64,000 nucleotides of DNA from Patescibacteria group bacterium (lineage in GTDB: Bacteria; Patescibacteriota; Minisyncoccia; Phycocordibacterales; BOKC01): assembly GCA_038062955.1 (NCBI GenBank), contig JBBTWE010000001.1:3927-67926 (forward strand), given 5' to 3'. A program made the translations under genes and the position numbers. A model generated the notes under the pieces. The model was not told the DNA's origin and made no database searches. It saw only the letters and a list, made by a program, of their open reading frames with translations. Below, in pieces: positions 311-46,654 of this stretch; position 1 is the first letter of the stretch, and every line of letters starts with the position of its first letter.

Positions 311-1024
311 ATGAATTCAATCTATGACCTAAGCTGGGGCAAGACCTCGTTTCTTGCCAAGCTGCTGCTCTTTTTCAAATCAAGAAAGCAAGAGAAGAAG
401 AGAATGTGCTCGAGCGATCGGTGGGTGCGAGCAGAAGGGTGTTCTGCTTTATCGAGCACCTACTACAACATCCTGGGGACAGCGTTTTCTCAGCTCAAGG
501 CAGCATGTCGACAGAAATGGCTCGCGCCGGTACGAATCGTGCCATGGTGTTTTACATGGCTTCCACTAGCTACATGGTGTTACTTACGGATGCTTCCTCT
601 TTCGGATCGGGTAAAATCTCTTATCGGTTACGACGGGATGTCTGCCGATCAGTGTGATGTCCGCCAAAGCATTCTACGTCGTCGTGGCCAGTACGAGGAA
701 GCGAGGAAGTGTATCTACGCCGCACTCTCCAAGAATCCTGAAAAAGCTCATACGCGATGTTTGCTTCGTGTTGGACTCGCCGAGATTTATCAGGTTGGCG
801 GTGATTGGTGCAGTGCAGAAGGGGAAGTACGTATAGTACTTGCCGATGCCTCGGAGGCAGAGGTACAAGATCCACGGCAAGCAGCACGCATTTATCGTCG
901 CTGTGCAGACGTCCTTAGTTTTTCCGGACAAACCACTCCTGCCCTGGTAATCGCCCTTCGTCGTCGAGCGAAAGAACTCGCAAAAGCAACTGGTGCACAA
1001 GATCAATCTCTCAAGCTGGAATGA
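311..1024 (+). CDS. hypothetical protein, GC-rich island, TPR-like segment
   Basis: 237-aa ORF with AGGAGG SD 7 nt upstream of ATG; region ~60% GC in ~35% GC genome; all frames open (GC artefact), longest + frame chosen. Confidence 0.4.
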   Translation: MNSIYDLSWGKTSFLAKLLLFFKSRKQEKKRMCSSDRWVRAEGCSALSSTYYNILGTAFSQLKAACRQKWLAPVRIVPWCFTWLPLATWCYLRMLPLSDRVKSLIGYDGMSADQCDVRQSILRRRGQYEEARKCIYAALSKNPEKAHTRCLLRVGLAEIYQVGGDWCSAEGEVRIVLADASEAEVQDPRQAARIYRRCADVLSFSGQTTPALVIALRRRAKELAKATGAQDQSLKLE

Positions 1025-1037
1025 TTCACAGCTGTTC

Positions 1038-1075
1038 GACCGCTTCGTGTTCATTCACGAAGCGGTTTCTTTTTG
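1038..1075 (+). terminator. rho-independent terminator
   Basis: gaccgcttcgtg-ttcatt-cacgaagcggt stem-loop followed by ttctttttg. Confidence 0.55.
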
Positions 1076-4388: not shown

Positions 4389-4417
4389 TTGACAAAATGT
4401 ACGAATGGGTGTATGCT
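4389..4417 (+). promoter_or_regulatory. sigma70-like promoter TTGACA-N17-TATGCT
   Basis: Near-consensus -35/-10 about 125 nt upstream of ORF 4543. Confidence 0.45.
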
Positions 4418-4542
4418 GGAAACAGAAAATTGCTCTTTTAAAGGGGTATTTGAGTTTGGGAAAAAGCCTGTAATCGACCTGCTAACCATCGTGTTAAGCG
4501 GATTGTAGACTGTCACCAAACTCAAAACTGTAGGAGATAAAC

Positions 4543-4974
4543 ATGGAACGTACTTCGGCAGGCGGTGCTTTCTTTGTGGTGCTCGTTCTGGCGGCTGCCT
4601 TCATTCTTCTTTTTTGTGTAGAAGGCGGCCACAGCAAGACCAATGTCTCTCTTCCCGCAAGGGGAGTCCTTGAGACGTTGGGATGGAGGAAGGTCACTAG
4701 CAAGCCGGTCCGGGTTCACCCAGACTTAGATTCTGCAGAGTTTCAACCTCAGCTCGATGGACTCATGCAACTGGAATTCGGGGAAACTGTTGCCACGCCG
4801 GATACTCTAGTTGCGTTTGTCAGCTTTCTCGGCTGGAACGCGACGAGCTCCCCAATCAACTCCCAGTGGCAAATCGGAGATGAGGTATTGGTGGCAAGAA
4901 CTCCACCCAAAGGAACTTCGACAGGACTGGGTATCTCCTACTTCGTCCTAGGCTACAGGAAGAAACAAGAGTGA
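4543..4974 (+). CDS. hypothetical secreted/membrane protein, GC-rich island
   Basis: AGGAGA SD; hydrophobic N-terminus AFFVVLVLAAAFILLF; GC-rich. Confidence 0.4.
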   Translation: MERTSAGGAFFVVLVLAAAFILLFCVEGGHSKTNVSLPARGVLETLGWRKVTSKPVRVHPDLDSAEFQPQLDGLMQLEFGETVATPDTLVAFVSFLGWNATSSPINSQWQIGDEVLVARTPPKGTSTGLGISYFVLGYRKKQE

Positions 4975-5190
4975 ATCATGGGGTGGAGCATCCTTGGCGC
5001 AAGCCTAAAGCTCTCGACACCGCTTTGCTTAGATCTAAGTCAGATCAGCAAGCGGTGTTTTCTTTTGTAAAAAATCTTCCATTTACAAGCTATATTTCAA
5101 TGACACATCATACAGAGATACCACGTTTATTACAGGTGACACGAATGAATAAAGATTTGGTATAATAATTAAAGCGTAAATGAACTCTTA

Positions 5191-9039: not shown

Positions 9040-10032
9040 TTATTTGTCCCAAATAAAACCATTTCCAAAATGTCCGTATTTCGCTGTTTCTCGAAACTGG
9101 GGTTTTTCCAAGTTTAAGTATTCAATAATTGCTTTTGGTCGTAGATCATAGCCAACGATCTTTTCTTGAATACCATCCATAGTAACTACTTTCATAAGCG
9201 GTTCTGCGACTCCGATTGCGTAAGCAATGTGTACATAAACTTCTTGCACCCCTTTCTTTTTTAAGTAATCAACCGCGATTTTTCTTGCCATATAAGCTGC
9301 GCTTCTATCCACTTTCGTCGCATCTTTTCCAGAAAACGCGCCCCCTCCAAGTGGGATATGTGGCCCGTAATTATCTACCGCAAGTTTCCTTCCTGTTAAT
9401 CCAGTATCGGCATGAAATCCTCCTATAGTCCACGATCCATTTGGATTTTTAAGCCAGATATCTTTTATATTTTTAACGTTTGCGGGAAGATATTTTTTAA
9501 ATTCTTTTTGAATTACCGAATCCAGTTTTACATCACTCATATTTCCACTTTTGCATAGAGAAGTGACTATCTTTGTCACTTTTCCATTTTCTGTTGTTAC
9601 TTGAGATTTACCATCATGTCTTCCCATCGCTTTTGTTAATTTACGAGCAAGAACAACTTCAAGCGGAAGCATTTCTTTAGTTTCATTTGTGGCGTAGCCA
9701 ACCATGATTCCTTGATCGCCAGCACCTTCATTGTCCACACCTTTTTTAATTTCAGGACTTTGTTCGACTACATTTACGGTTATTCCAATATCATCGGCAT
9801 ATCCACAATCCAGATAAACTTCTTTTACAATTTTTCTAATATTGATTCGAGACTTTGTTGTGAGTTCTCCGGTAACCGTAATGATTCCGTGCCCACCAAG
9901 CACTTCAATGGCTGATCTTGTGTGTGGATCATCATGAAGGCATGCGTCTAAAATTGCATCAGATATTTGATCGCATATTTTATCTGGGTGCGCCAAAGTG
10001 ACAGATTCCGCTGTTCTTATTTTTGATAGCAT
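9040..10032 (-). CDS. metK: S-adenosylmethionine synthetase
   Basis: AESVTLAHPDKICDQISDAILDA, GAGDQGIMVGYA, GGGAFSGKD motifs. Confidence 0.9.
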   Translation of the reverse strand: MLSKIRTAESVTLAHPDKICDQISDAILDACLHDDPHTRSAIEVLGGHGIITVTGELTTKSRINIRKIVKEVYLDCGYADDIGITVNVVEQSPEIKKGVDNEGAGDQGIMVGYATNETKEMLPLEVVLARKLTKAMGRHDGKSQVTTENGKVTKIVTSLCKSGNMSDVKLDSVIQKEFKKYLPANVKNIKDIWLKNPNGSWTIGGFHADTGLTGRKLAVDNYGPHIPLGGGAFSGKDATKVDRSAAYMARKIAVDYLKKKGVQEVYVHIAYAIGVAEPLMKVVTMDGIQEKIVGYDLRPKAIIEYLNLEKPQFRETAKYGHFGNGFIWDK

Positions 10033-10284: not shown

Positions 10285-10430
10285 TAAAAAACTCCCAATT
10301 GGGAGATAAACGAAATCTTTCACGAGATAACGATTATCCTTCCCTTGCGGGCTGGGTTGGCACCTTCTTAGTTTCCTAAGGGTTGTCGGCGGGTCACTGA
10401 GCCAGAACTCTAACCGCCTCTTGATAACAC
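10285..10430 (-). promoter_or_regulatory. SAM-I (S-box) riboswitch with intrinsic terminator, upstream of metK
   Basis: minus strand: GUUAUCAAGAGGCGG...CCGCCGACAACC...GGUGCCAA...CCCGCAAGGG...GGAUAAUCG aligns to SAM-I P1-P4; terminator CUCCCAAUUGGGAG+U6. Confidence 0.75.
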
Positions 10431-12608: not shown

Positions 12609-12680
12609 TAGATTTGGATATAAAAAAACGGCCTAAGCAGAATTGCCTAGGCGCGTTCGGTTTGGTGTCGAGCTCGTGTG

Positions 12681-13085
12681 TCAGGTCTTCTTCAAGTCCT
12701 GCCACTCTTCGCTCTTCCACTTCCGCGGACCCATGTGCGCGTAGACGGTCTGTCCCGGCTTCGGCACGATCCAGTGGAGGTGAAGGTGTTCGATAGATCT
12801 TCCCGTTGTTTCGAATCCGCCCAATCTCATGAGGAGTGTTCCTTGGGGCCAGTTTTTTTGAACGAAAGGCATTACCCCAGTGTAGAATTCGCTCCAGAGT
12901 CCGAGAGTCTTCTGACTCCACCTGAACTTGGTTATGTGGTCCTTCGGTAGAAGCAAGAGATTGGTTTTGGCGTTGTCGTACGGAGCCTTATTGTCGGTTA
13001 CTCGCCAGCGTTCTGTCTCGAAGTAGATCGGTTCTTCGCGGATGTCGATTGCGGGTGAACAGAAAGGGCAATCCGTGGCGGTCAT
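12681..13085 (-). CDS. HIT-family (histidine triad) nucleotide hydrolase, GC-rich island
   Basis: HLHLHWI histidine triad; CPFC N-terminus; GGAGA SD; ~58% GC. Confidence 0.7.
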   Translation of the reverse strand: MTATDCPFCSPAIDIREEPIYFETERWRVTDNKAPYDNAKTNLLLLPKDHITKFRWSQKTLGLWSEFYTGVMPFVQKNWPQGTLLMRLGGFETTGRSIEHLHLHWIVPKPGQTVYAHMGPRKWKSEEWQDLKKT

Positions 13086-13144
13086 AATTGTCTCCTAGCC
13101 ATTTCTGGCATTATGGTTGTTTTTCTGGGAATTCCTGCTATACT

Positions 13145-14206
13145 ATGTCAGAAATGATAAAAATGTCAAGTAAAAAAAACCTATTAATTATCACCCAGAA
13201 AGTGGACCAAAATGACACCTTGCTTGGTTTTATGCATGGGTGGATTATAGAATTTGCTGCTAATTTCAAGAAAATTACAGTCATTTGCCTTCAAAAAGGC
13301 GAATATTCTCTACCTTCAAACGTTGAAGTGTTGTCTTTGGGTAAAGAGTTGGGAGCTTATAAAGTCGAATACATTTTTAATTTTTATCGTTATATTTTTT
13401 CGAGGCGGAAACAATATGACGCTGTTTTTGTGCACATGAATCCAGAATACGTGCTTTTGGGAGGAATTTTTTGGAGGTTGTGGGGCAAAAAAATAGTGCT
13501 TTGGTATAACCACACTTTCGGAAATTGGAAGTGTCGGTTTGCCATGAAGATTGTTAATGTCGTCTGTCATACATCTCCTTACGCATTTACAGCTAGGACA
13601 AAAAAATCACTTCAAATGCCAGCTGGAATTCCCACAGAAATTTTTAAGTTTGGTGGATTAAAAACCACGAAGCCATCAATTCTTTATGTGGGGAGAATTG
13701 CGCCCGTTAAGGATCTAGCTACTATTATTGGGGCTGTAAAAATTTTACACACCGAGAAAATAGATTTTACTCTTAACATATACGGAGAAGCTCTGCCTCG
13801 TTACAAAAAATATGAGGAGGAAATAAAAAAAGAAGCCCATGACCTGATAGATAAAGGACTTATTTTTTTTAAGGGAAGTATCCCAAATCGAGAGACGCCA
13901 AAAGTTTTTAGTGAATCGTGGGTATTTGTGAATCTCACCCCGTCTGGGAACTATGATAAAACAGTTCTTGAAGCGATGGCTTGTGAAAGTATTCCTGTTG
14001 CATCAAGCCGGGCTTTTGCTGAAATACTGCCTGCGAATCTAATTTTTAAAGAAAAAGATCCTGTGGATTTGGCAGAAAAAATAAAAAACATATTAGCATT
14101 TGGGGTACAAGATAGAGAAAAAATAGGAAAAGAAATGAGAAATACTGTAGAGAAAAGGGAGAGTCTTAATAAGTTAACTTCAAAAATAGTCGAAATTTTT
14201 AATTAA
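13145..14206 (+). CDS. glycosyltransferase family 4
   Basis: YVGRIAPVKD...NYDKTVLEAMACESIPV; internal ATG chosen, start uncertain. Confidence 0.65.
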   Translation: MSEMIKMSSKKNLLIITQKVDQNDTLLGFMHGWIIEFAANFKKITVICLQKGEYSLPSNVEVLSLGKELGAYKVEYIFNFYRYIFSRRKQYDAVFVHMNPEYVLLGGIFWRLWGKKIVLWYNHTFGNWKCRFAMKIVNVVCHTSPYAFTARTKKSLQMPAGIPTEIFKFGGLKTTKPSILYVGRIAPVKDLATIIGAVKILHTEKIDFTLNIYGEALPRYKKYEEEIKKEAHDLIDKGLIFFKGSIPNRETPKVFSESWVFVNLTPSGNYDKTVLEAMACESIPVASSRAFAEILPANLIFKEKDPVDLAEKIKNILAFGVQDREKIGKEMRNTVEKRESLNKLTSKIVEIFN

Positions 14207-14928: not shown

Positions 14929-16074
14929 ATGAAGCTTGTTTATATTGCTAACGCTCGAATCCCAACCGAAAAGGCTCACGGTTATCAGATAATGAAGATG
15001 TGTGAAAGTTTTTCTTCCTTAGATTTGAAAGTGGAATTAGTTTTGCCGACAAAGAGAAATCGCATTAAGGACGATCTATTCAGTTTTTATAATATCAATA
15101 AAAATTTTGAGGTTAGGAAAATTAAAAGTCCTGATTTTATTGGAATCTGGCCAAAATTAGGAAAAGTCTCTTTTTGGCTCCAAAATATATTTTTTAGTAT
15201 AGCAATTCTTTTCACTAAATTTGAAAAGGATACTGTATTTTATACACGTGGAGCGGCAATAGTTTTTATTTTACGTCTACGTGGCAGACAGGTTTTTTTT
15301 GAATCTCACAGATTGTCGAATAATTCATTGGTCTACCGGATGCTCCTTGGTAAAAAAACCAAAATAATCTCATTAACCGAAGGAGCAAAAGAAGTTTATA
15401 TAAAATCAGGCTTTTTGAAAGAGAATATTATGGTTGCTCCGGATGCCGTTGATCTTCAAATTTTTGGCAATGGATTAAGTGTGGAAGATGCAAGGAGACG
15501 AGTAAATTTGCCGCTCAACAAAAAAATCATCGGATATTTTGGGAGTTTTAAAACAATGGGAGAAGATAAGGGACTTCGTGAAATAATTAAAGCTTTGGCG
15601 GGTTTGCCTCAAGATGTTTTTCTTTTGGCTGTTGGGGGTTTGGGTACTGAGCTTCAATTTTACGAGAAGGAAGCAGAGAAAATGCTAGGCCAAAACAGAG
15701 CAGCCTTTCGTCCCTCTGTACCTCGCAAGGAACTGTCTTTTCTAGAAGAATCGTGCGATATTCTACTTATGCCGTTTCCGGACACAGTGCATTACCGGTT
15801 CTTCATGTCTCCGCTAAAGATGTTCGAATATATGGCGAGTAAGCGGCCTATAGTTACCACAGATTTGCCGTCAATCAGAGAAATACTTGATGAGTCGAAT
15901 GCTGTTTTGGTTACTCCAGGCAACATAGAAAAACTTAAAGAGGCAATAAAATATCTTCTGGGTAATCCCGAAGTTGGTAAAAAATTGGCAGACAATGCTT
16001 TTACTGCAGTGAAAGAATATACCTGGGACAAAAGAGTCGAGAAAATTTATAGATTTATGATTTCAGATTTTTGA
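14929..16074 (+). CDS. glycosyltransferase family 4 (paralog A)
   Basis: FPDTVHYRFFMSPLKMFEYMASKRPIVTTDLPSIREIL. Confidence 0.75.
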   Translation: MKLVYIANARIPTEKAHGYQIMKMCESFSSLDLKVELVLPTKRNRIKDDLFSFYNINKNFEVRKIKSPDFIGIWPKLGKVSFWLQNIFFSIAILFTKFEKDTVFYTRGAAIVFILRLRGRQVFFESHRLSNNSLVYRMLLGKKTKIISLTEGAKEVYIKSGFLKENIMVAPDAVDLQIFGNGLSVEDARRRVNLPLNKKIIGYFGSFKTMGEDKGLREIIKALAGLPQDVFLLAVGGLGTELQFYEKEAEKMLGQNRAAFRPSVPRKELSFLEESCDILLMPFPDTVHYRFFMSPLKMFEYMASKRPIVTTDLPSIREILDESNAVLVTPGNIEKLKEAIKYLLGNPEVGKKLADNAFTAVKEYTWDKRVEKIYRFMISDF

Positions 16075-16130
16075 TTTCTAATATAGAATTTTTAATAAAT
16101 CTTAAATCTTAAATCGCACATCTTAAATCT
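16052..16130. repeat. inverted heptamer arrays (GATTTNN)x4 ... (NTAAATC)x4 abutting GTG start of 16131
   Basis: gatttat gatttca gattttt gatttct - 17 nt - aaatctt aaatctt aaatcgc acatctt aaatct. Confidence 0.5.
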
Positions 16131-19997: not shown

Positions 19998-20083
19998 AAT
20001 CGAATTAAATTTTTTTGAAAAAAGAAAAATCTTAAAATCTGGTGTTTTTTAATAAAGGGTATTAAACCCTTTGACCGTCTACA

Positions 20084-20180
20084 GGTGTCGACGCCCAACC
20101 CGTCGACCCCGTCTTCACTCGCGCATCATGGGAGTGAGGTCGATTGGACTAATGATCGACTGCTCGCTAGCCGGAATAAA
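20084..20180. repeat. GC-rich intergenic repeat module (D+C modules of MITE family)
   Basis: ccgtctacaggtgtcgacg resembles 4151-4170; ccgtcttcactcgcgcatcatggga...gctcgctagccggaataaa resembles 10117-10192. Confidence 0.45.
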
Positions 20181-20245: not shown

Positions 20246-21346
20246 TTGATAAATTTCAATATGAAATATAAAAAAACCAAGTACGCTCTTATTGCAGGTG
20301 CCCGTCCGAATTTTGTGAAGATCATGCCTCTTTATCATATGCTCAAAAAAAGGGGAGATAATTTCTTTTTGGTAAATACTGGTCAACATTTTGACAAAAG
20401 CATGTCCGATCAGTTTTTCAAGGAATTTAAACTCAGACCACACTTTTCTCTTAAACCATCGCATGAATCCCTTGCTAGGCAGCTTTCTGATATTGTGCAC
20501 GGTTTAGAAATTATTTTTAGAAAAGAGAAACCTGATGTTATTTTTGTGGTGGGTGATGTTACTTCTACTTTGGCGGGAGCATTGGTTGCCAATAAGCTTG
20601 GTATTTTACTTGTGCATATCGAGGCAGGTCTTCGTTCTCATAATAAATATATGCCGGAAGAAACAAACCGAATAATTGTAGATCATCTTTCCAATATTCG
20701 CTTGGCGTCGGAAGAAACAGCACTTAAAAATCTGGAAGATGAAAGAATCGAACATAACTCTTATTTGGTGGGAAATATTATGATGGATACGCTTTCACAC
20801 TTCTTGCCGATTATTAAAAGTAGTAAGGAAAAATTCTACTTCTGCACCTTACATCGTCCTGAAAATGTAGATAACCCTGAAGTTTTTAAAGATATTATCG
20901 ATGCACTCGAAGAAATATCAAAAGATGCTAAAATTTATTTATCGCTTCATCCAAGAACAAGAAGACGAGCAGAAGAATTTGGTCTTTTAAAAAGAATCGA
21001 GAATATTTTTAAAGTTCTTTCTCCGCTTTCGTATTCTAAAACTCTTTTTTATCAAAAAAATGCTAAACTTGTGCTTACCGATTCAGGTGGAATACAAGAG
21101 GAAGCGAGCTTCATGGGGGTTCCGTGCATTACGCTGCGAACAGAGACCGAAAGACCCATAACTGTTACTCACGGGACTAATATTATAGCTGGAGTGACCA
21201 CTCAATCTATTTTAGATATTTATAAAAAAGTAAAATCAAACGGCTTAGAAAAAAGAAAAACTAAAATTCCACTTTGGGATGGAAAAGCTACGAAAAGAAT
21301 TCTAGACATTATCTCATTACATAATCAAAGAAAGATAAAAAGATGA
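20246..21346 (+). CDS. wecB: UDP-N-acetylglucosamine 2-epimerase (non-hydrolysing)
   Basis: ARPNFVKIMPL, TGQHFD, HIEAGLRS, PEETNR, TDSGGIQEE. Confidence 0.85.
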   Translation: MINFNMKYKKTKYALIAGARPNFVKIMPLYHMLKKRGDNFFLVNTGQHFDKSMSDQFFKEFKLRPHFSLKPSHESLARQLSDIVHGLEIIFRKEKPDVIFVVGDVTSTLAGALVANKLGILLVHIEAGLRSHNKYMPEETNRIIVDHLSNIRLASEETALKNLEDERIEHNSYLVGNIMMDTLSHFLPIIKSSKEKFYFCTLHRPENVDNPEVFKDIIDALEEISKDAKIYLSLHPRTRRRAEEFGLLKRIENIFKVLSPLSYSKTLFYQKNAKLVLTDSGGIQEEASFMGVPCITLRTETERPITVTHGTNIIAGVTTQSILDIYKKVKSNGLEKRKTKIPLWDGKATKRILDIISLHNQRKIKR

Positions 21347-34722: not shown

Positions 34723-34780
34723 GAGACAAAAGAAATAATTTTAAATCTTAAATTATTAAAAATCATAAATCTTAAATCCA

Positions 34781-35887
34781 ATGATTCCATACGGTAAACA
34801 ATCAATAGATCAGAGTGATATCGACGCAGTAGTTGAGACCTTAAAATCTCCATTTTTAACTCAAGGTCCAAAGGTCAAAGAATTTGAAGAAAAGTTAGCT
34901 GCCTACTCTGGCGCAAAATATGCCGTGGCTGTTTCAAATGGTACTGCGGCTTTACACGTTGCTTATTTAGCGGCAGGAATAAAAGCCGGGGATGAAGTTA
35001 TAACATCTCCTAACACATTTGTGGCTACATCTAATATGTTACTCGTAATTGGTGCGAAGCCGGTTTTTTGTGATCTCCGACCTGATACTTGCAATATTGA
35101 CGAAACGAAAATCGAAAAACTTATCACCAAAAAAACAAAAGCGATTGTTCCTGTGCATTTTGCTGGCAATCCTTGCGACATGGACAAAATAAAATCTATC
35201 GCAAAGAAACACAAACTTCTCGTGATTGAAGACGCTTGTCATGCACTCGGGGCGAGTTTCAAAGATAAGAAAATTGGATCTATTGGCGATATGAGCGTCT
35301 TTAGTTTTCATCCTGTAAAATCAATTACAACTGGCGAGGGTGGAGCAATCTTGACTGACAATAAAAAATTCTACGAAAAAATGCTTACCTTGCGAAGCCA
35401 CGGAATTCATAAAGATAAAAAAGGACTTGTTGTTATGACCCATATGGGATGGAACTATCGCATTACGGACATCCAGGCCGCTCTCGGCGTCTCCCAGTTA
35501 AAAAAACTTGATGGTTTTATTGATGCGAGAAGACAGGTTGTTAAATGGTACGAAGAAGCTTTTAAGGGTGCAGGTGGAATCATCCTGCCAAAAGAAACTG
35601 CAGGTTCAAAGTCCGCCTGGCACGTTTATGTAATCAGAGTTAAAAATAAAAAAGATCGTTTTCCTCTTGCAAATTTTCTTAAAGAAAAGGGAATTGGAAT
35701 TAATTTTCATTATCCTGCCGTTTACGGTCAACCATATTATAGAAAAAATGGTTATGCTAAGACAAAATTAAAAGAGGCTGATTTATATAATATTACCGCA
35801 ATTACTCTACCTCTTTTTCCAAACTTGAGCCGTCAGGAGGTGAAGCTTATTGTGCGAAGCATTAATGAGTATTTTATAAAAAATTAA
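34781..35887 (+). CDS. pseC: DegT/DnrJ/EryC1 PLP-dependent UDP-4-keto-sugar aminotransferase (PseC-like)
   Basis: FSFHPVKSITTGEGG PLP-lysine region; GWNYRITDIQAALG. Confidence 0.8.
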   Translation: MIPYGKQSIDQSDIDAVVETLKSPFLTQGPKVKEFEEKLAAYSGAKYAVAVSNGTAALHVAYLAAGIKAGDEVITSPNTFVATSNMLLVIGAKPVFCDLRPDTCNIDETKIEKLITKKTKAIVPVHFAGNPCDMDKIKSIAKKHKLLVIEDACHALGASFKDKKIGSIGDMSVFSFHPVKSITTGEGGAILTDNKKFYEKMLTLRSHGIHKDKKGLVVMTHMGWNYRITDIQAALGVSQLKKLDGFIDARRQVVKWYEEAFKGAGGIILPKETAGSKSAWHVYVIRVKNKKDRFPLANFLKEKGIGINFHYPAVYGQPYYRKNGYAKTKLKEADLYNITAITLPLFPNLSRQEVKLIVRSINEYFIKN

Positions 35888-35897
35888 ATATACTATT

Positions 35898-36857
35898 GTG
35901 ATTAAAAAAATTGCGTGGGGGACAAGCAAACTATTAGAAATGTATCTACGGCAAACAAAATCTAATCCGTTTAGTTATTGCATCGATGATTTTACAAAGC
36001 GTGATATGTTTTGTGGATTACAGGTAAAAAGATCGACTACGTTATCGAATGAAAAGAAAGGGGAATTCTTGATGGTTATTTTTGCCGTTTCAAATGAAGC
36101 TCTTCAAGAAATATCTTCTTCCCTTAGATCCAGTGGGCTGTCATATGGAAAAGATTTTATTTTTTATTCAGACTTTTTCCGTCCTAATTTTGAAAAAAAG
36201 ACCGAGAAACTTCTGGGAATTAAACTGAACAACGATCTTTACAGATATGCGTTATCTTTTACTTTAAATTCGAGAACATCCATTCATACGACCATATTGG
36301 GGACGTGGTTGTTTCTTGAATTGGTAAAAAAAGTTGATTCTTTGCATGGCCAAATTGCTGAAGTCGGTTCTTTTCAGGGTGGAAATGTGCTATGTGCTCT
36401 TAATTTTATGGCGGCGGCAGGATTACACCCTAAAAAATATTATGCCTTCGATTCATTTGAGGGTTTTCCGGAATTAAGTGAATTTGATCCAAAAAGTTTT
36501 CGGCGTGGTGATCATTCTATAAAAGTGATTCCGCAGGAGATAATGGATAAATTTGTTATTTTTCCAAATGCGAAAATTGTCAAAGGTTTTATCCCGAAGA
36601 CTTTTAGTCATATTGGTAATAACGAACGATTCGCATTAGTTTTTTACGATTGCGATCTATACGAGCCGGCACTTGCGACTTATAAGTATTTCTGGGATAA
36701 AATAGTCCCTGGAGGATATATGGTGATACATGATTATGAGACTCAAACAGGCGGTTTTACTGGAGTCAAGAAAGCATCCGAGGAATTCTTCGGTCCATTA
36801 GGTGTTGTTCCTACATCTTTTTTTGAGAATACCATGGCTGTAATAAAAAAACAGTGA
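35898..36857 (+). CDS. TylF/MycF-family SAM-dependent (O-)methyltransferase with N-terminal extra domain
   Basis: EVGSFQGG...FDSFEGFP...FYDCDLYE...GGYMVIHDY. Confidence 0.55.
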   Translation: MIKKIAWGTSKLLEMYLRQTKSNPFSYCIDDFTKRDMFCGLQVKRSTTLSNEKKGEFLMVIFAVSNEALQEISSSLRSSGLSYGKDFIFYSDFFRPNFEKKTEKLLGIKLNNDLYRYALSFTLNSRTSIHTTILGTWLFLELVKKVDSLHGQIAEVGSFQGGNVLCALNFMAAAGLHPKKYYAFDSFEGFPELSEFDPKSFRRGDHSIKVIPQEIMDKFVIFPNAKIVKGFIPKTFSHIGNNERFALVFYDCDLYEPALATYKYFWDKIVPGGYMVIHDYETQTGGFTGVKKASEEFFGPLGVVPTSFFENTMAVIKKQ

Positions 36858-37924
36858 AAGTCATACCATACGATAAAACAAGAAAGAATGAATGGGATGC
36901 TTTTTGCATTGCGAGTGATGATGCATGGTTTTGGCATACATCAGATTGGTTGGAATATACAATTAATTATAAACCGGAGCTAACAACTACCGATTTAAGT
37001 TTTTTGGTCTATGATCAGGACAAAATAGTTGCTATTGTTCCACTCACTTTGGAAAATACTTTATTGCTTACCGAAACGGTTAGAGAGTTTTCTTTTGGTG
37101 GATGGACTATTCCTGCGCCCGCATTGTTACCCGGGCTGTCTGTGGGTGAACGAGAATATCTCCACACATTTATTTTTAAGGAAATAGATAATCTAGCCAC
37201 TCAAAGTAATGTTGTTCGGGCAAGTTTCAGAATTAGTCCGCTTTCTTCAAATGAACGGGGAAATGTCCACTACAATTATCTTCTCCCTTTCGGGTATAGT
37301 GATGTTTCTCTGTTTACGAGAATTATTGATTTAAATAAAAGACCGGAGGAATTGTGGAATGATCTTCGGCGGAATCATAAACGCAGTATAAAAAAAGTCA
37401 GTGATTTTAAGGTATCTTTTTTTTCATCTGAAAACATAACTAAAGAAATCTTTGATGAGTACAAAAAAATGCATCATAAGGCCGCTGGACGTAAGACCCG
37501 CCCGGACATTACTTTTGAAATGATGTTTGACTGGATTCAAGATAATCTCGGTTTCTTGGGGGTGGTGGAATATCGGGGTGAAAGAATCGGTTTTGAGTAT
37601 TACACAATATATAAAAATAAAGCATATGGATTTTCTGCCGCTAACGAGCCCGCATATTCTTATTTGCCCATACGACCGATTTTGGAATGGGAAGCTATGT
37701 TATGGATGAAGAAAAAAGACATCTCTACCTATGAAATCGGTGTAGATTATTATGGAACCCTGCCTTATGATGTGCCGGATTCTGAACAGTTAAACATCTC
37801 TCATTTTAAAAGAGGTTTTGGTGGAGTTCCCGTCCCATTGATAATGGCTGAAAAATTTTATAACAAGGATTACTTCCTAAAAATGACTGATTATCGAGCA
37901 CACCGTTTTGCTTCAACGTTATGA
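36854..37924 (+). CDS. FemAB/Acetyltransf_6-like GNAT-fold acyl/aminoacyl transferase (putative)
   Basis: Overall length and pattern; weak. Confidence 0.4.
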   Translation: MKVIPYDKTRKNEWDAFCIASDDAWFWHTSDWLEYTINYKPELTTTDLSFLVYDQDKIVAIVPLTLENTLLLTETVREFSFGGWTIPAPALLPGLSVGEREYLHTFIFKEIDNLATQSNVVRASFRISPLSSNERGNVHYNYLLPFGYSDVSLFTRIIDLNKRPEELWNDLRRNHKRSIKKVSDFKVSFFSSENITKEIFDEYKKMHHKAAGRKTRPDITFEMMFDWIQDNLGFLGVVEYRGERIGFEYYTIYKNKAYGFSAANEPAYSYLPIRPILEWEAMLWMKKKDISTYEIGVDYYGTLPYDVPDSEQLNISHFKRGFGGVPVPLIMAEKFYNKDYFLKMTDYRAHRFASTL

Positions 37925-38889
37925 TAACTACGAAATTAATTATTATAGGTTTTGGCTCAATCGGACAGAGACACTATAAAAATCTCCTTTCTCTTGGGTA
38001 TGAAAATGTTTATGTTTACGATGTAGATCCAAAAAAGATTCAAGATTCAAGATTCAAGATTCAAGATTTAGATGAAAAGACACTAAAAGATTTTAATGTC
38101 GCTTTTATAACCAACCCGACCCACTTACATGTTGAAACAGCTTTGCTTGCGGCCAAAGCCGGTTGTCATTTGTTTATCGAAAAACCCCTTTCTCATAATC
38201 TAAAAGGTATAAAGAATCTAATAGAAGTTGCTAAAAAGAAAAAGAGTATTGTGATGGTTGGATGCAATTATAGATTCAACAAAGGTTTTAAAATGTTAGA
38301 AGAGGTTGTGAAGAATAAAAAATTCGGTGATCCATTATTGTCTCGAGTGGTGATCAGTCAAAATTTAATTAAGTCTCGGCCTGGAGTTGATTTCAAGACT
38401 ACCTATGCGGCGCAATCAAAATTTGGCGGCGGAGTTATATTAGATTCTGGATCGCACGCTGTTGATTATCTCTCTTCTCTATTTGGTTTCGGCAAATGCG
38501 TTTCTGCCTACTCCGAAAAAAATGACAAACTTGATATAGACGCGGAACACTCGGCTAATTTTATTTTGAAGCATAAAAATGGGGTTGTATCGGAAGTCAG
38601 TCTGGACTATTTCGGTGAACCTAAAAAGCATTCTTTAGAAGTGCAATTTAAAAATGGTTCTGTTAAATGGAATTTTGCCGGAAATACAATCGAGACTTAC
38701 GATAGCAAAAGTGGGGAATCAAAAATCACTTCGATTTACGGAGCGAGTGAGATAGAATCGGCTCGAAATGATATGTATGTGGAAGAGTTGCGACATTTTT
38801 TAAATGCGGTTAAATATAGTGGACCCGTAATCAATGATTTGGAAAATGCGTTTGAGGTTATGAAAATATTAATTAAAGCCAAAAAATAA
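37921..38889 (+). CDS. Gfo/Idh/MocA-family NAD(P)-dependent oxidoreductase
   Basis: IIIGFGSIGQRH Rossmann N-terminus; contains in-frame heptamer repeat. Confidence 0.7.
   Translation: MITTKLIIIGFGSIGQRHYKNLLSLGYENVYVYDVDPKKIQDSRFKIQDLDEKTLKDFNVAFITNPTHLHVETALLAAKAGCHLFIEKPLSHNLKGIKNLIEVAKKKKSIVMVGCNYRFNKGFKMLEEVVKNKKFGDPLLSRVVISQNLIKSRPGVDFKTTYAAQSKFGGGVILDSGSHAVDYLSSLFGFGKCVSAYSEKNDKLDIDAEHSANFILKHKNGVVSEVSLDYFGEPKKHSLEVQFKNGSVKWNFAGNTIETYDSKSGESKITSIYGASEIESARNDMYVEELRHFLNAVKYSGPVINDLENAFEVMKILIKAKK
38036..38070 (+). repeat. in-frame heptanucleotide tandem repeat (agattca)x4+agattta
   Basis: Encodes KIQDSRFKIQDL; same heptamer family as 8395-8436. Confidence 0.65.
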
Positions 38890-38892
38890 TCC

Positions 38893-40200
38893 ATGGCAAA
38901 AACAAATAAAAAAAGAATTTTGCAAAAATCTAAAATCCTTCTTGAAAAGGCCGAAAAAATTATTCCTAGAGGCGCTCAAACCTTAAGCAAAGCGCCAGAT
39001 CAGTTTATTCGTGGCGTTTCTCCCTATGCAATTGCAAAAGGTAAGGGCTGTCATGTCTGGGATGTCGATGGAAATAAATATATAGATTTAGCTTCCTCGC
39101 TCGGCGCGATTGTTTTGGGGCATCAATTTCCTCTTGTTGAAAAAGCAATAAAGAAACAGAGAAAAAACGGGACACTATTTTCTCTCCCCGGGGAATTGGA
39201 AGTCGAGCTCGCAGAAAGAATTAAAAAAATGATTCCTTTTATGGAAAAGATGCGTTTTGGTATGAATGGTTCTGATGCAACGTCTGGTGCTATTCGTGTT
39301 GCCCGAGCTTATACCGGGAGAGACCATGTTGCTAAGTGCGGTTATCATGGTTGGACTGATTGGTCTATTGCAACCAATCCGCTTCGAAGCAAAGGTGTGC
39401 CACAAGTGGTTAAGGATCTGACCCATGAATTTAAATATAACGATATTGGAAGTTTGGAGAAAATTTTTGAGGATCATTCAGGAAAAGTCGCAGCTGTTAT
39501 CTTAGAGCCAGTAAGTACTGTGTTGCCAGAAAAAGATTTTTTGAATGAAGTAAAAAGGTTGGCTCATAAAAACGGAGCAGTATTGATTTTCGATGAATTA
39601 GTAACAGGCTTCAGATTAGCTAGGGGAGGTGCGGCGGAATATTTCAAAGTCGAACCAGATTTGGCTTGTTATGGGAAAGCAATTAGTAATGGTGAGCCGC
39701 TTTCAGTCTTTGGGGGCAAAGGCGAAATCATGGATGTTTTAAGCGGGCAGGACGTGTTCTACTCTTTTACCTATGCCGGATATCTTCCCTCAATTGCAGT
39801 TGCGATAGAAGTACTCAAATTCATGGAAAAAAACAATGTCCAGAAAAAACTTTGGAAAACCGGAGAATTACTTATCGCCAAATACAAAAAACTTACGGAA
39901 AAATATAAAGTGCCAACAAAAGTAACTGGAATCGGGCCTCACCCAATTTTTGCTTTTAAAGATGAGAAAGGGGGAGATAATCTCGCTCTCAAAAGTTTAT
40001 TCTTGCAGGAAACAGCTAAGCGTGGAATTTTGACCAACTGTTCGAATCTCACGAACTATTCTCATGAAGTTAAAGATATTGAAGAAGTATCTAAACGATT
40101 GGAAGAAATTTTTGTAATTATAGAAAAAGCGGTTCGAGAAAATAAAGTTGAAGAAAGGTTGGAGGGGCCTATGATACGCCCTCGCAGCAAACCCCTCTAA
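38893..40200 (+). CDS. class III PLP aminotransferase (glutamate-1-semialdehyde aminomutase-like)
   Basis: DELVTGFRLARGG, CYGKAISNG (PLP lysine). Confidence 0.75.
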   Translation: MAKTNKKRILQKSKILLEKAEKIIPRGAQTLSKAPDQFIRGVSPYAIAKGKGCHVWDVDGNKYIDLASSLGAIVLGHQFPLVEKAIKKQRKNGTLFSLPGELEVELAERIKKMIPFMEKMRFGMNGSDATSGAIRVARAYTGRDHVAKCGYHGWTDWSIATNPLRSKGVPQVVKDLTHEFKYNDIGSLEKIFEDHSGKVAAVILEPVSTVLPEKDFLNEVKRLAHKNGAVLIFDELVTGFRLARGGAAEYFKVEPDLACYGKAISNGEPLSVFGGKGEIMDVLSGQDVFYSFTYAGYLPSIAVAIEVLKFMEKNNVQKKLWKTGELLIAKYKKLTEKYKVPTKVTGIGPHPIFAFKDEKGGDNLALKSLFLQETAKRGILTNCSNLTNYSHEVKDIEEVSKRLEEIFVIIEKAVRENKVEERLEGPMIRPRSKPL

Positions 40201-40420
40201 AACCTCATATTCGGCACACTTCGTTGTCGCCGCACTCGTTTGCTCCCGCAATGTATAAGTACATACATTTTGGTCGACAAGCCTCGCTTGCTCCTAGAAT
40301 TGCGCTCGAATCTGAGATTTTAGAGTTTCTTCATTCGGTCAATTTTTATATAAAAAAACACCTTGGGACAATTCGTGTATCACGAACGTTCTCAAAGTGT
40401 TGTGGATGGGGGTAGCCCCA

Positions 40421-40867
40421 TCAACCTTCCCCAGGCAACTCTCCTCTTCGTGGCAAGCGACCGTGTTGCTCTAAAAACTGGAGTGACATTTCTGCCTTCT
40501 TCTTTGCACGGCGGTTGATTGCTATTTTTTGTTCACGCGTGAGAGTGAGTATTGAACCAATCTCTTCGCCGTAACCTACTTCTAGTGCACAAGCAGCTAT
40601 CTCTGTACAGTGATCCAAGAATTCCTCACTAGCTGTGCCATCGAAGATGTCGCCGGTGATGAGCCTCATTTCTTGGCTGTAATTTATCATCTTTATGTTC
40701 TGTGCGGCATGTGGACCAAAATCGCCGATACTTCGGCATACTGCACGAATTCTCTCCGCTTCGACGAGCATCTCTCTGAATTTTGCGTCCATTTCTGGTC
40801 TCCCTGGTTTGTTGTGTTTGAGATCAAAATCCTTTAGTAGGATAGCATAGGAAAAAATTTCTGTCAA
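40421..40867 (-). CDS. hypothetical protein, GC-rich island (weak MazG-like NTP pyrophosphohydrolase resemblance)
   Basis: GYGEEIGSILTLT resembles MazG EExGDxL; hairpin+T7 terminator downstream on minus. Confidence 0.3.
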   Translation of the reverse strand: MTEIFSYAILLKDFDLKHNKPGRPEMDAKFREMLVEAERIRAVCRSIGDFGPHAAQNIKMINYSQEMRLITGDIFDGTASEEFLDHCTEIAACALEVGYGEEIGSILTLTREQKIAINRRAKKKAEMSLQFLEQHGRLPRRGELPGEG

Positions 40868-40915
40868 ATTTCCTTTCGTAAAATAGAAATAGAACCTATT
40901 CTCTGTCGCTATACG

Positions 40916-41521
40916 TTATACGTTTACACCTAATTTTTGAAGTTCACTTTTGCACTGATCGAGGGATTCGAATAGAAAGGCATACATGCCGAGGTTTCTT
41001 GCCGCTTCAACATTTTTTTTGGAGTCATCGATAAAGATGGTTTCTTCTGGTTTTGATCCAAGTTCTTTAAGTGCTAATTCATAAGCCGTAGTGTTGGGCT
41101 TCATGATACCGATTTCATTGGAAAAAAACATTCGCGGGAATATTTTTTTGAGATTGTGATTATTTAGAATATGTTCCATCATCTCTTCGGTTAGATTAGA
41201 AAGAACAGCTGTCTTGTAATTTTTTTTGAGTTTTTTTGCAAGCTCAAGCATTTCCGGCCATATCTTGTAAGACGAAGTATAAGCTTCTCCTAATTTTGTT
41301 GGAGTAAGATTTTTTAATTTGAAAAATTCAATTATTTTATTCCAGAATTGTTCTTTGGACATCTCTCCACGATAGTATGGTTTTTGAATATCCTGGGATT
41401 TTTCTCCCATTTCATCAACACTTAAACCAGTTTGTTTGGTAATTTCAGGATGAAAAAATGGCTCTCCTGGGTTGCAAAAGACCCCGGCCCAATCAAATAT
41501 TATGGTTGTAATTTTCTTCAT
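40916..41521 (-). CDS. HAD-superfamily hydrolase
   Basis: IIFDWAGV (DxxG motif I), IFIDDS motif IV; start set at ATG preceded by AGGAGG. Confidence 0.7.
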   Translation of the reverse strand: MKKITTIIFDWAGVFCNPGEPFFHPEITKQTGLSVDEMGEKSQDIQKPYYRGEMSKEQFWNKIIEFFKLKNLTPTKLGEAYTSSYKIWPEMLELAKKLKKNYKTAVLSNLTEEMMEHILNNHNLKKIFPRMFFSNEIGIMKPNTTAYELALKELGSKPEETIFIDDSKKNVEAARNLGMYAFLFESLDQCKSELQKLGVNV

Positions 41522-41543
41522 ACCTCCTATAATACAAACTAAT

Positions 41544-42659
41544 ATGAACGGGGACAAGAACAGCAAAAATATGAAAATTTTTCTACCCAACAACCACAGT
41601 AAGTGGAAAATAGACTATAAATTGGTTAGTCCAGATAATAATGAAAATCTAAAGAAAGTTTTCTTGGAAAATTTTTCCAACATTGCTGATTCAGTAATAT
41701 CAATAGAACAAGTGGCTGAGACCGAAGTGAATAGTAATAATTTTAAACTTGGAACTTCCAAGGGTAAAAAGAAATCATTTTTCTTACTTCGCCGATATCC
41801 AGAAACTCGAAATATCGATTCCATAAAAGGCGCTCATGAGGTTTTAAATTTTTTAAATAAAAGTGGGCTGAAAACCCCAGAAATTATTTTGTCAGATAGT
41901 GGGGAGGAGATAGTTCATACGACCCCATACCACTACACTGTTTTTAAATTTCTCAAATCCAATCATTTTAAAGGAAGCTTGGATGAAATAAAAAGTGCTG
42001 CGAGAGAATTTGGCAAAATGGATGCTCTTCTAGAAAAATTGCCAGATGCTACTAAAATAAAGAAGATGCTCGAGTTTCCTCCGAAAGTTCTAAAGTTAAG
42101 AGAATTTTCTACAGAAATTTGGGAAAACATATTTAAAGAAGCAGGGAAACACCTAGAAGAAACCAATGACGAATTTGATTCCAAACTTCTTTCTTTTAAG
42201 GATTTTATTCTAGACGCTGTTAAAAAAACAGAAAGCTTGAAAGATGAAGCAAAAACATTAGATAAACAAATTATTCATTTTGATCTTCATCCTCATAATC
42301 TTTTAACTGACGGCAAGAAATTGGTAGCAATACTCGATTTCGATTCTTTAAGGAATTTTCCCAAAATGCACGGGATTGCTTTTGCGATGCATCGACTCGT
42401 GAGGCAATATATTGTCTTTGCCAAACCTAAAAATATCAAAAAAGCTGTAGAAAAGGCTAAAGAAATTTTTCTTAATGTATATCAAAAGGAAAATCCACTA
42501 ACCGAGCTTGAAATTAAATTAATTCCGTTTTTTCTAAAAACAGAAGCACTCTCAAGACTTTCTTACGCAATGAAAGATTTTTATTTTAATGGTAATGCTG
42601 CGTGGAAAGGGGATTTGGACAAGCAGACCGCTGCCATAGCAGAAGCAGAGCATTTTTAA
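41544..42659 (+). CDS. APH/choline-kinase-like phosphotransferase
   Basis: IIHFDLHPHNLL...ILDFDS (Brenner motif + DFD). Confidence 0.6.
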   Translation: MNGDKNSKNMKIFLPNNHSKWKIDYKLVSPDNNENLKKVFLENFSNIADSVISIEQVAETEVNSNNFKLGTSKGKKKSFFLLRRYPETRNIDSIKGAHEVLNFLNKSGLKTPEIILSDSGEEIVHTTPYHYTVFKFLKSNHFKGSLDEIKSAAREFGKMDALLEKLPDATKIKKMLEFPPKVLKLREFSTEIWENIFKEAGKHLEETNDEFDSKLLSFKDFILDAVKKTESLKDEAKTLDKQIIHFDLHPHNLLTDGKKLVAILDFDSLRNFPKMHGIAFAMHRLVRQYIVFAKPKNIKKAVEKAKEIFLNVYQKENPLTELEIKLIPFFLKTEALSRLSYAMKDFYFNGNAAWKGDLDKQTAAIAEAEHF

Positions 42660-42692
42660 AATCCTAAATCTTATATCGTAAATCATAAATCT

Positions 42693-43451
42693 ATGAGTAC
42701 TCTCTGTATAATTCAAGCTCGAATGAGCTCAACAAGATTACCCGGAAAAGTTTTGAAAGAGATAAACGGTAAACCTATGCTTTTTTATTGTTTGGAAAGA
42801 TTAAAAGAATCTAAAACTTTGGATAAGGTGGTGGTTGCAACGAGTGATCATAAAGATGACGATGTAATTGCCGATTTTTGCCAAAAAGAAAAAGTAGATT
42901 GTTTCCGTGGGTCACTCGAAGACGTATTGTCGCGCTACGCCGAATGTGCAAAAAAATATCCAGAATATGACACCATTGTTCGTGTGACTTCCGACTGCCC
43001 TTTGATTGATCCAAAAGTAGTCGATAAAGTTGTCTCAAATTTCTTAAAAGAAAAAATGGATTATGTAAGCAATGTCCTAGAAGAAACTTTTCCAGATGGA
43101 ATTGATATTGAAGCTTTTTCTAGAAAGGCACTTTTAGCTTCCGACAAAGAAGCCCTACTTCATTCTGAAAGAGAGCATGTTACTTTATATATTCGAAACA
43201 ACCCAAAATTTAAAAAACTAAACATTAAAAATAAAGTTAATATGTCTAAATACCGTTTGACGGTAGATAACCCCGAAGACTTCGAAGTAATTTCATTCTT
43301 AATAGAGAATTACGGATACAAACTTACCTTCGAAGAATACTGCAAGCATTTAGATAAGCATCCAGAAATTATGGAGAAGAATTCTAAAATTGAGCGAAAT
43401 GCCGGTCTCAAAAAATCTCTTAAAGAAGATAAGAATTCTTCTAATTCCTAG
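42693..43451 (+). CDS. CTP_transf_3-family cytidylyltransferase (CMP-nonulosonate synthetase/SpsF-like)
   Basis: IIQARMSSTRLPGKVL N-terminal motif. Confidence 0.7.
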   Translation: MSTLCIIQARMSSTRLPGKVLKEINGKPMLFYCLERLKESKTLDKVVVATSDHKDDDVIADFCQKEKVDCFRGSLEDVLSRYAECAKKYPEYDTIVRVTSDCPLIDPKVVDKVVSNFLKEKMDYVSNVLEETFPDGIDIEAFSRKALLASDKEALLHSEREHVTLYIRNNPKFKKLNIKNKVNMSKYRLTVDNPEDFEVISFLIENYGYKLTFEEYCKHLDKHPEIMEKNSKIERNAGLKKSLKEDKNSSNS

Positions 43452-43468
43452 AGCCTATTGCCTAATTT

Positions 43469-44329: not shown

Positions 44330-44362
44330 AAATAAAAAATCCGTTCTGGGTTTTCAGAACGG
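44329..44362 (-). terminator. rho-independent terminator (T-run on minus strand)
   Basis: ccgttctg-ggtttt-cagaacgg preceded on plus by aaaataaaaaat. Confidence 0.5.
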
Positions 44363-44384
44363 ACGATCGAGTGAGTTCCTTGAG

Positions 44385-44624
44385 TTAATATCGGTGTCCA
44401 TCGATATAACCCTTGGCAAAGCTCAAGCACTCGTGGAAAGATGGAGTGACGTGGCCACTTCCGGCGAGATACCAATTCCGCGGGTCAGAGAAATCGTTCT
44501 CGAGATCGGCCCAGTTGCATCCCTCTGGTAGGTTTCGGTAACGAGGGTCTTGCTTCAGGGCACTCAATACTTGCTGGATCACCGCAGGCAGGCCTTCCAA
44601 ACCAGGCAATTGGTCAGATATCAT
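44385..44624 (-). CDS. hypothetical small protein, GC-rich island
   Basis: 79-aa ORF in ~58% GC region. Confidence 0.35.
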   Translation of the reverse strand: MISDQLPGLEGLPAVIQQVLSALKQDPRYRNLPEGCNWADLENDFSDPRNWYLAGSGHVTPSFHECLSFAKGYIDGHRY

Positions 44625-44730
44625 TACTCAACTCCTTTGGTTTCTTAGTGGGTAAAGGGAACAGTCCTTCACAATTATGGCATATCAATGAAATTTCTGC
44701 AAGTTTTTGCGTGTTCTTTTTTCCTTTTGA

Positions 44731-44770
44731 ATAAAAAAATCCGCCTCAACGCACGAATGCGGAGGCGGAT
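44731..44770 (-). terminator. rho-independent terminator for beta-propeller gene
   Basis: atccgcctc...gaggcggat stem with A7 on plus (U-run on minus). Confidence 0.5.
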
Positions 44771-44798
44771 GAAGCAAGGAACCTCGCGGCTCTACTTG

Positions 44799-45623: not shown

Positions 45624-45732
45624 GATTCATGGCTGTGTTCCTGTGCTTTGTAAGGTCAAGGTGCAATTCCAGCGAAGTGCTGGATTCCTCCATAATAATA
45701 CCTATATTGGCTTTTTTGTCAAGCACCATGAT

Positions 45733-46644: not shown

Positions 46645-46654
46645 CCGGGTCTCT

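Follow-up and report, generated by a model that had tools for sequence, protein, structure and literature searches.

GC-rich gene islands in and beside a cell-envelope glycan locus of an AT-rich Patescibacteria genome

Phage morons are autonomous promoter-gene-terminator units of atypical composition that sit between genes and are defined within prophage genomes, and surface-polysaccharide and O-antigen loci are, in most bacteria, AT-richer than the genome that carries them. In aquifer Patescibacteria, horizontal gene transfer is described, in the accessible text of one study, as frequent, mostly within the phylum (~83% between Patescibacteria) and mostly not recent (PMC12455944). For Lawsonia intracellularis, whose genome is AT-rich, the available portion of one report describes putative alien genes that are unusually GC-rich (PMC2671203).

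Here we describe GC-rich islands scattered through 64,000 nt of Patescibacteria DNA (hereafter the window, meaning the whole stretch analysed). They are real, look foreign in composition and expression signals, and vary between sister lineages. We infer both the direction and the source of transfer: the islands are rather probably accessory genes acquired laterally from higher-GC genomes, probably largely other Patescibacteria. Taken this way, the case is one of ordinary horizontal gene transfer, a new example of a known phenomenon that leaves current views unchanged.

Composition, expression signals and assembly of the islands

Two-state GC segmentation over the window returned nine high-GC segments, 6.3 kb when summed, with a GC content of 0.475–0.584 and a background of 0.363:

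333-1065, 4545-5023, 12629-13083 and 40157-40807: high-GC segments
44341-46664, 50916-51496, 54252-54793 and 59205-59526: further high-GC segments
58095-58315: ninth high-GC segment

The ninth, a bump in secA, was rejected as an island, being a conserved protein motif with ordinary GC3 whose GC is raised in all relatives too. This leaves eight gene-bearing islands with ten genes, the composition of which was compared with that of 48 native genes. Native genes have a GC of 0.367 ± 0.026 (maximum 0.428) and a GC3 of 0.310, whereas island genes range from 0.476 to 0.585 in GC (z 4.1–8.3) and from 0.45 to 0.75 in GC3, and the two GC distributions do not overlap. GC1, GC2 and the share of Gly, Ala, Arg and Pro are likewise higher in island genes (Mann-Whitney p 1e-6 to 7e-5). 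In GC-normalised dinucleotide signature, the pooled islands lie at a distance of 139 x10^-3 from native DNA, and every island is nearer to other islands (52–96) than to native DNA. The islands thus display the host-atypical composition by which genomic islands are recognised, and their borders match the borders of gene units. The original prediction had put the contrast at ~55–60% against ~33% GC; the contrast is real but milder, ~52% against 36–37% by segmentation and per-gene GC. The eight gene-bearing islands in its list of ten hold up, while the remaining two are an intergenic stretch and a piece of murC. The former (20070-20175) is non-coding, with only weak folding (z -1.8) and no match in Rfam, and the latter (~2341-2460) is only an in-frame, insertion-like segment of about 40 codons with a GC3 of 0.57. 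An Rfam search of the islands also returned nothing. Apart from the HIT island (island 3), described in the next section, the islands are laid out as follows:

311-1067, plus strand: island 1, a 237-aa gene at 311-1024 with a weak TPR match and a hydrophobic N-terminal part, Shine-Dalgarno (SD) sequence AAGGAGG, terminator at 1038-1067
4389-5023, plus strand: island 2, promoter TTGACA-17-TATGCT at 4389-4417, an SD, and a 143-aa gene at 4543-4974 with an N-terminal membrane anchor
40421-40867, minus strand: island 4, an all-alpha protein whose likely start is 40792 (123 aa), with its promoter at 40839-40867
44339-45722, minus strand: island 5, first part, promoter at 45695-45722, a 274-aa beta-rich gene at 44799-45623 (GC3 0.75), a 79-aa gene at 44385-44624, terminator at 44339-44364
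45733-46664, plus strand: island 5, second part, divergent -35 TTGACA at 45733 and a 277-aa multi-pass membrane protein at 45811-46644
50880-51550, plus strand: island 6, a DUF218/YdcF-family gene at 50880-51512, terminator at 51526-51550
54250-54809, minus strand: island 7, a gene at 54273-54809 for a Nudix hydrolase whose Nudix box is intact, and the region's strongest terminator at 54250-54274
59265-59576, minus strand: island 8, an 87-aa membrane protein of two helices at 59265-59528, downstream of the promoter TTGACA-17-TATCAT at 59548-59576

The genes given for islands 4, 5 and 8 are revised calls, based on codon-position GC and on the positions of promoters and terminators. Some public gene calls within islands look wrong; those in island 5 (44688-45251 on the plus strand, 45187-45729 on the minus strand) have poorer codon-position GC than the revised genes.

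Each island is predicted to be a self-contained expression unit with a sigma70-type promoter carrying a consensus -35, an SD and a GC-rich intrinsic terminator. Island genes have a mean SD pairing energy of -8.5 kcal/mol and native genes one of -0.95 kcal/mol (p = 1e-5); five of eight island genes, against two of 48 native ones, are preceded by an SD core 5 nt or longer. In two 20-kb promoter scans, all five promoters that scored at least 10/12 with a perfect TTGACA were island promoters (at 4389 on the plus strand and at 13169, 40867, 45722 and 59576 on the minus strand), and the top-scoring terminators flank islands (1038 and 51526, plus strand; 12652, 44364 and 54274, minus strand). The claim that the islands, unlike native genes, have their own SD, promoter and terminator is confirmed by these SD energies, promoters and terminators, as is the near-consensus promoter expected at 4389; at 45733, where another was expected, there is a -35 TTGACA. 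The presence of an SD in acquired genes, set against its absence from native ones, is a handy marker of foreign genes in Patescibacteria and poses the small question of how such acquired genes are translated.

An assembly or binning chimera had been raised as one possible origin of the islands, and the compositional contrast, though nothing else, speaks for it. Exact protein matches to the window were found on contig CAYIIC010000001.1 of GCA_964363395.1, which derives from the Hainich groundwater observatory, well H43 (window position = contig position minus 6,205). Thirteen contigs from separate sample assemblies, comprising Hainich H43 assemblies in ENA, which differ in filter fraction, replicate and assembler, as well as Logan run assemblies, are 99.99–100% identical to the window across the junctions that they cover. 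For islands 2, 3, 5, 6, 7 and 8, but not for islands 1 and 4, these contigs reach across both borders, and orthologous island junctions recur in other sample sets and other aquifers. Together, these separate contigs and orthologous junctions exclude a chimera for the six islands, and we give practically no credence to such an origin for the islands as a whole. GC outliers in a metagenome-assembled CPR genome can therefore be genuine biology rather than contamination, and curation tools that trim segments of atypical GC would remove such genuine genes.

Three of the protein identities first proposed, HIT, Nudix and DUF218, are confirmed by Pfam scores and, for HIT and Nudix, by motifs. The DUF218 gene scores 65 bits (E = 7e-18; cut-off 27.6) and the Nudix gene 25.8 bits against Pfam NUDIX (E = 1.1e-5; cut-off 21.1), with GGAEEGEDTIKTLEREFEEECGI matching all fixed positions of the Nudix box GX5EX7REUXEEXGU. 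Two further proposals found no support. For the possible MazG-like protein, for which the protein at 40421-40867 is the only all-alpha candidate, neither a search for MazG families in Pfam and NCBIfam, which matched no island protein, nor a comparison with PDB sequences gave a significant hit, and the AF2 model of this all-alpha protein reached a pLDDT of 60 with an empty fold search at E <= 0.001. For the putative SMP-30-like propeller, the AF2 model is all-beta but unusable (pLDDT 33). This gene holds a single sub-threshold match to an NHL repeat (E = 0.007), and in a metagenome scan it matched itself alone. PDB sequence searches with four island proteins yielded nothing significant, the 143-aa protein of island 2 matched no family, and most island genes besides HIT and DUF218 have no detectable homologues.

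The HIT island and the persistence of its GC

The HIT island (12610-13085) comprises the following features:

12681-13085, minus strand: HIT gene, 134 aa, with a CPFC motif and an HLHLHWI triad (GC 0.531, GC3 0.674)
13091-13096, minus strand: SD AGGAGA, 5 nt upstream of the start codon (duplex energy -7.3 kcal/mol)
13142-13169, minus strand: promoter predicted by scan, TTGACA, 16-nt spacer, CATAGT and an upstream TG
12622-12652, minus strand: intrinsic terminator, a 9-bp GC-rich hairpin (12631-12652) followed by a T-run

The -35 and -10 elements overlap the first codons of a divergent glycosyltransferase gene, and the terminator faces a convergent one. Since the promoter lies within native coding sequence, at least this element was not imported with the gene. 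The protein matches Pfam DcpS_C at E = 8e-6 (26.7 bits; curated cut-off 24), and in a PDB profile search its residues 4-106 matched HIT proteins (2e-5 to 2e-3). Residues 100-106, HLHLHWI, fit the pattern H-phi-H-phi-H-phi-phi; the histidines are invariant in a four-sequence alignment, and the triad is retained in all five orthologues. By family, the product is a putative HIT-family nucleotide hydrolase or transferase, and its conserved neighbourhood hints that its substrate would be an intermediate of the glycan pathway that is linked to a nucleotide.

Homologues with more than 45% identity form only four clusters among 5.8 billion proteins, all from sister lineages, and when 1.84 billion representatives were searched exhaustively with a profile, one close cluster came up at E = 6e-48, followed by a gap to 2e-19. 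The close homologues come from L015, L016, L097 and L101-L104, the ANAN16 scaffolds of the last group being Rifle-labelled. Amino-acid identity to the window protein is 76% in L015, 70% in L097, 65% in L016 and 50–54% in L101-L104, and all of these close homologues, for which flanking DNA is available, lie between the same two glycosyltransferase genes. The orthologous HIT genes have a GC of 0.50–0.55 and a GC3 of 0.58–0.66, and the genes adjoining them, which are 78–90% identical to those of the window, have a GC of 0.34–0.37. The acquisition had been proposed to be recent. Because the HIT island is in place and GC-rich in five of five related lineages recovered, an outcome that the original prediction itself had named as a sign of ancient acquisition, it is old. 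It probably entered before the five related lineages split and would since have been inherited in place, slowly losing GC under AT-biased host mutation. One GC-rich gene can in this way be dated to before a radiation of aquifer lineages that includes Hainich (Germany), a Rifle-labelled sample set (ANAN16) and other samples.

The expression signals are conserved alongside the gene. Across the five lineages the -35 is invariant and the -10 conserved, with the same site scoring 12/12 in L102, and the SD is conserved in four of five. The 3'UTR and terminator share 94–95% identity among three lineages, with few stem changes, which preserve pairing. The HIT gene itself evolves faster than its neighbours, and relationships change along the island: the 5'UTR groups the window with L097 and L016 with L101, the middle groups the window with L015, and the downstream part groups L015 with L101. 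This mosaic pattern suggests recombination between lineages.

That HIT is still GC-rich in five diverged lineages also speaks for a different account, in which the islands are native, lineage-specific genes whose GC is actively maintained, whether by selection on SD-dependent translation or mRNA or by GC-biased gene conversion at hot spots. The orphan status of most island genes, which lack outside homologues, agrees with this account, as does mosaic divergence pointing to recombination in HIT and along the locus. The HIT-flanking genes have an NG86 dS >1, and a rejection of neutral amelioration in favour of active maintenance was considered on that basis; it was abandoned, since four-fold sites are less saturated and the neutral prediction is matched. 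At four-fold sites of conserved codons, the flanks are 54–70% identical (27–28% by chance), which implies that 0.6–0.75 of ancestral third-position states were retained per lineage. With this rough retention estimate and an assumed ancestral GC3 of 0.8–0.9 at entry, amelioration predicts 0.60–0.72 today, and the observed HIT values are 0.58–0.67. Polarised third-position changes, which are few and subject to parsimony bias, run on balance from GC to AT at ~2:1 in HIT, versus ~1:1.7 in a control gene, and singleton SNPs among four near-identical contigs (L101-L104) place the host equilibrium GC at ~0.29. Ordinary, ongoing amelioration would be sufficient to account for the GC3 of HIT.

Comparison with synonymous shuffles led us to reject selection for structured mRNA (island mean z -0.6 versus -0.04), as there is no general excess of structure in island genes, and the HIT mRNA is overall less structured than its shuffles, although its last 186 nt fold unusually well (z = -4.4), a point in favour of maintenance. 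A special synonymous constraint on the 3' third of HIT was likewise dismissed, four-fold identity there (0.68) being within the flanking range of 0.54–0.70, and clear constraint is left only in the 3'UTR and terminator. Island borders that coincide with gene units, and close sisters without islands, also count against maintenance. Gene-conversion effects reported on bacterial GC3 lie far below 25–40 points. We consequently regard maintenance as unlikely.

Variation among sister lineages and the source of the genes

Positions ~7.8–54 kb of the window form one long cell-envelope glycan locus (~50 kb), and the islands lie inside it or at its edges. Its genes include many GT4 and GT1 glycosyltransferases, MBOAT, an epimerase, an ABC exporter, a capsule-synthesis protein, FkbH, ACPS, MaoC, SDR, Polysacc_synt_2, DegT, NeuB, a CMP-sugar synthetase and a Wzy_C ligase. 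The window SecA is at most 64% identical to that of any GTDB species representative, the nearest being Paceibacteria-type MAGs; a SecA-anchored scan of GTDB genomes reached only distant relatives, which served as evidence of empty sites rather than of close synteny. Comparison with sister lineages covers part of the window, with island 1 lying outside it.

Islands 4, 5, 7 and 8 are patchy among relatives, and sites 2 and 5 carry other cargo, unlike the HIT site, which is occupied in five of five lineages. In L099, with flanks 88–96% identical, NeuB directly follows the CTP-transferase, which means that EamA and island 5 are absent there, and island 4 and its neighbours are missing as well. The Nudix island is absent from L098 (flanks 70–84% identical) and L020, and island 8 from L017 and L098. 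L098 and L102 have unrelated, GC-rich orphan genes where the window has islands 5 and 2; these genes are followed by strong terminators, and one of those in L102 has a TTGACA promoter. These absences, and unrelated cargo at the same spots, fit lateral acquisition at hot spots. For DUF218, the comparison suggests that a foreign homologue took the place of another copy: in L098, the gene at this site has native GC (0.377) and only 43% identity, and the best match beyond the close sisters, at 52% identity, is in L100, a relative of 49% GC in which gene order is conserved. The DUF218 gene of L099 is GC-rich and 74% identical to the window copy. Divergence between the window and L099 is itself mosaic along the locus, with dS from 0.45 to 1.8.

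On our preferred reading, the genes would have been acquired laterally from higher-GC genomes, one or a few at a time, with other Patescibacteria probably making up most of the donors. At different times, a few recombination-prone spots may have taken up genes by insertion or allelic replacement, and the resulting units would have been stably inherited in and beside the glycan locus. The envelope-glycan locus of these ultra-small bacteria is a mosaic with recurrent insertion spots. The piecemeal horizontal acquisition originally proposed is thus consistent with genes that look foreign at all codon positions and in their SD signals and that are patchy among sisters, though for HIT it was not recent.

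The source had been suggested to be a high-GC donor, possibly the host of an episymbiont. Recent piecemeal acquisition from such a host would agree with the GC-rich composition, with the lack of several islands in sisters and with the GC3 of 0.75 in the propeller-like gene. Against it stand the age and conserved position of the HIT island and the affinity of the nearest labelled HIT relatives, which are Paceibacterota or Patescibacteria. The closest HIT outgroup copy (L106, 41% identity) is at the GC of its own, 43%-GC genome and is embedded in a comparable glycan or teichoic-type cluster. For HIT, DUF218 and the propeller-like gene, no close homologue beyond the sister lineages turned up in the collections searched, which also contain assemblies from the same well, and a dinucleotide-signature ranking of more than 80 candidate loci was uninformative as to donor. 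A host origin therefore appears highly unlikely. Patescibacteria affinity is seen for HIT and DUF218 only; no donor sequence or identifiable donor clade was found for any island.

The autonomous promoter-gene-terminator organisation is moron-like, and the nucleotide-hydrolase folds and a surface-glycan location likely to be relevant to phage adsorption raise the further idea of phage morons, or of anti-phage defence genes in which HIT and Nudix deplete nucleotides, in a hot spot of defence or receptor variation. None of the ten island proteins matched PHROGs or PADLOC, no relatives of HIT, Nudix or the propeller-like gene were found on IMG/VR viral contigs, the window contains no prophage genes, and the outgroup HIT copy likewise lies within glycan genes. 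We consider this idea hardly probable. Nor do other signs of mobility appear: the islands share no end motifs, direct repeats or att-like repeats, the window has no tRNA gene, and no integrase or transposase is among its annotated genes. Integron gene cassettes were considered and rejected, as the 3' hairpins of the islands share no sequence, the islands are scattered and there is no integrase.

A more speculative possibility, which we hold to be distinctly improbable, is that two expression regimes coexist in Paceibacteria of this clade, an AT-rich core translated without SDs and a floating pool of GC-rich, largely orphan single-gene units that would bring or evolve consensus sigma70 promoters, SDs and strong terminators. 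Such units might be exchanged independently of integrases at fixed hot spots of the glycan locus, for example by natural transformation and homology-facilitated recombination. If true, this would amount to an undescribed cassette-like system of accessory genes for variation of the episymbiont surface and of host interaction.

Comparison with known systems

Within the HIT superfamily, the window protein resembles the Hint/Fhit-like branch (PDB 3oj7, 5uvm, 2eo4) in its N-terminal CxxC, its HxHxHxx triad and a profile match that extends across the full domain. It differs in that it belongs to an isolated subfamily, which occurs only in a few lineages of Patescibacteria and in every case within a glycan locus, and in that its C-terminal tail, PKPGQTVYAHMGPRKWK, is conserved.

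Among known transferred genes, the islands can be set beside those described in aquifer Patescibacteria, which belong to the same phylum and habitat type and likewise comprise single transferred genes and small islands (PMC12455944). The accessible text of that study does not describe the autonomy of each gene in promoter, SD and terminator, the GC-rich direction of the contrast or hot spots in a glycan locus, and the present study, unlike it, names no donor (PMC12455944). Lawsonia intracellularis similarly combines GC-rich foreign outliers with an AT-rich host (PMC2671203), but it is a different organism, and the available portion of the report gives no per-gene analysis of signals and no test in sister lineages (PMC2671203).

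The islands share with phage morons their autonomy, atypical composition and insertion between unrelated genes. They differ from them in the lack of a prophage context and of matches to PHROGs or viral contigs. With hypervariable surface-polysaccharide regions and O-antigen loci they have in common a locus of glycosyltransferase and nonulosonic-acid genes, gain and loss of genes, mosaic divergence and atypical composition. In contrast to typical O-antigen loci, however, the atypical genes here are GC-richer rather than AT-richer, because the recipient genome is very AT-rich.

Divergence and gene content of the glycan locus

The comparison of the window with L099, a close sister lineage, revealed a roughly four-fold range of synonymous divergence (dS) between genes across 34781-51512. 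The citryl-CoA genes and DegT are at the low end (0.45-0.6); at the high end (1.3-1.8) are NeuB, CTP-transferase and DUF218, the last of these being the gene of a GC-rich island. The ~50-kb cell-envelope glycan locus is thus a recombination mosaic, native-GC genes included.

The citryl-CoA-type genes (47960-50795) code for proteins like the large and the small subunit of citryl-CoA synthetase, along with a short protein of the citrate-synthase-like (citryl-CoA lyase-like) type. They adjoin NeuB within the nonulosonic-acid/glycan cluster, an unexpected location for such enzymes, and their order is kept in the sister lineages L098 and L099. Their role in this cluster might be acyl-group activation for sugar modification.

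Coding sequence in and near the GC-rich islands

The HIT (histidine triad family) promoter (13142-13169, -) lies within the opening codons of the divergent glycosyltransferase gene. Its -35 element, read on the opposite strand, is ATGTCAA (Met-Ser), and its -10 element spans the ATG annotated at 13145, so that the two transcription units have a head-to-head overlap. Within murC (1021-2526), an in-frame GC-rich segment of ~40 codons at 2341-2460 (ADQGASEKRTEPYVQYGEGASQRSNAEMRRIRKSHKNFDS; GC 0.55, GC3 0.57) looks like a lineage-specific insertion just ahead of MGAGD, a conserved motif at the C-terminal end of MurC.

Three recorded MAG gene calls in GC-rich islands (44688-45251 +, 45187-45729 - and 59139-59453 +) are probably on the wrong strand or in the wrong frame; 44799-45623 (-), 44385-44624 (-) and 59265-59528 (-) agree better with the codon-position GC and with the promoters and terminators. 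One further ORF is absent from the recorded calls:

59060-59200 (+), zinc-ribbon-like ORF of 46 aa with two CxxC pairs, immediately 3' of secA

Non-coding elements

The S-adenosylmethionine synthetase gene (9040-10032, -) is preceded by a riboswitch:

10331-10430 (-), SAM-I riboswitch (Rfam RF00162, 55.8 bits)

A GC-rich non-coding segment of ~105 nt (20070-20175), in the spacer preceding a UDP-GlcNAc 2-epimerase-like gene (20261-21346), had no match in Rfam, and its fold z-score was modest (-1.8). Either an uncharacterised leader RNA or the relic of a gene could account for it.

A tandem, heptamer-periodic motif (TAAATCT/AAATCTT) matched 20 times in the window against 2.5 expected, an ~8-fold excess, and all four of its sites stop just upstream of native genes that lack a Shine-Dalgarno sequence (SD):

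16052-16129, inverted array in an AT-rich spacer, before the gene at 16131
34743-34778, before the gene at 34781
42659-42691, before the gene at 42693
50032-50116, inverted array in an AT-rich spacer, before the gene at 50121

The motif may be a lineage-specific element acting in regulation, termination or translation initiation.
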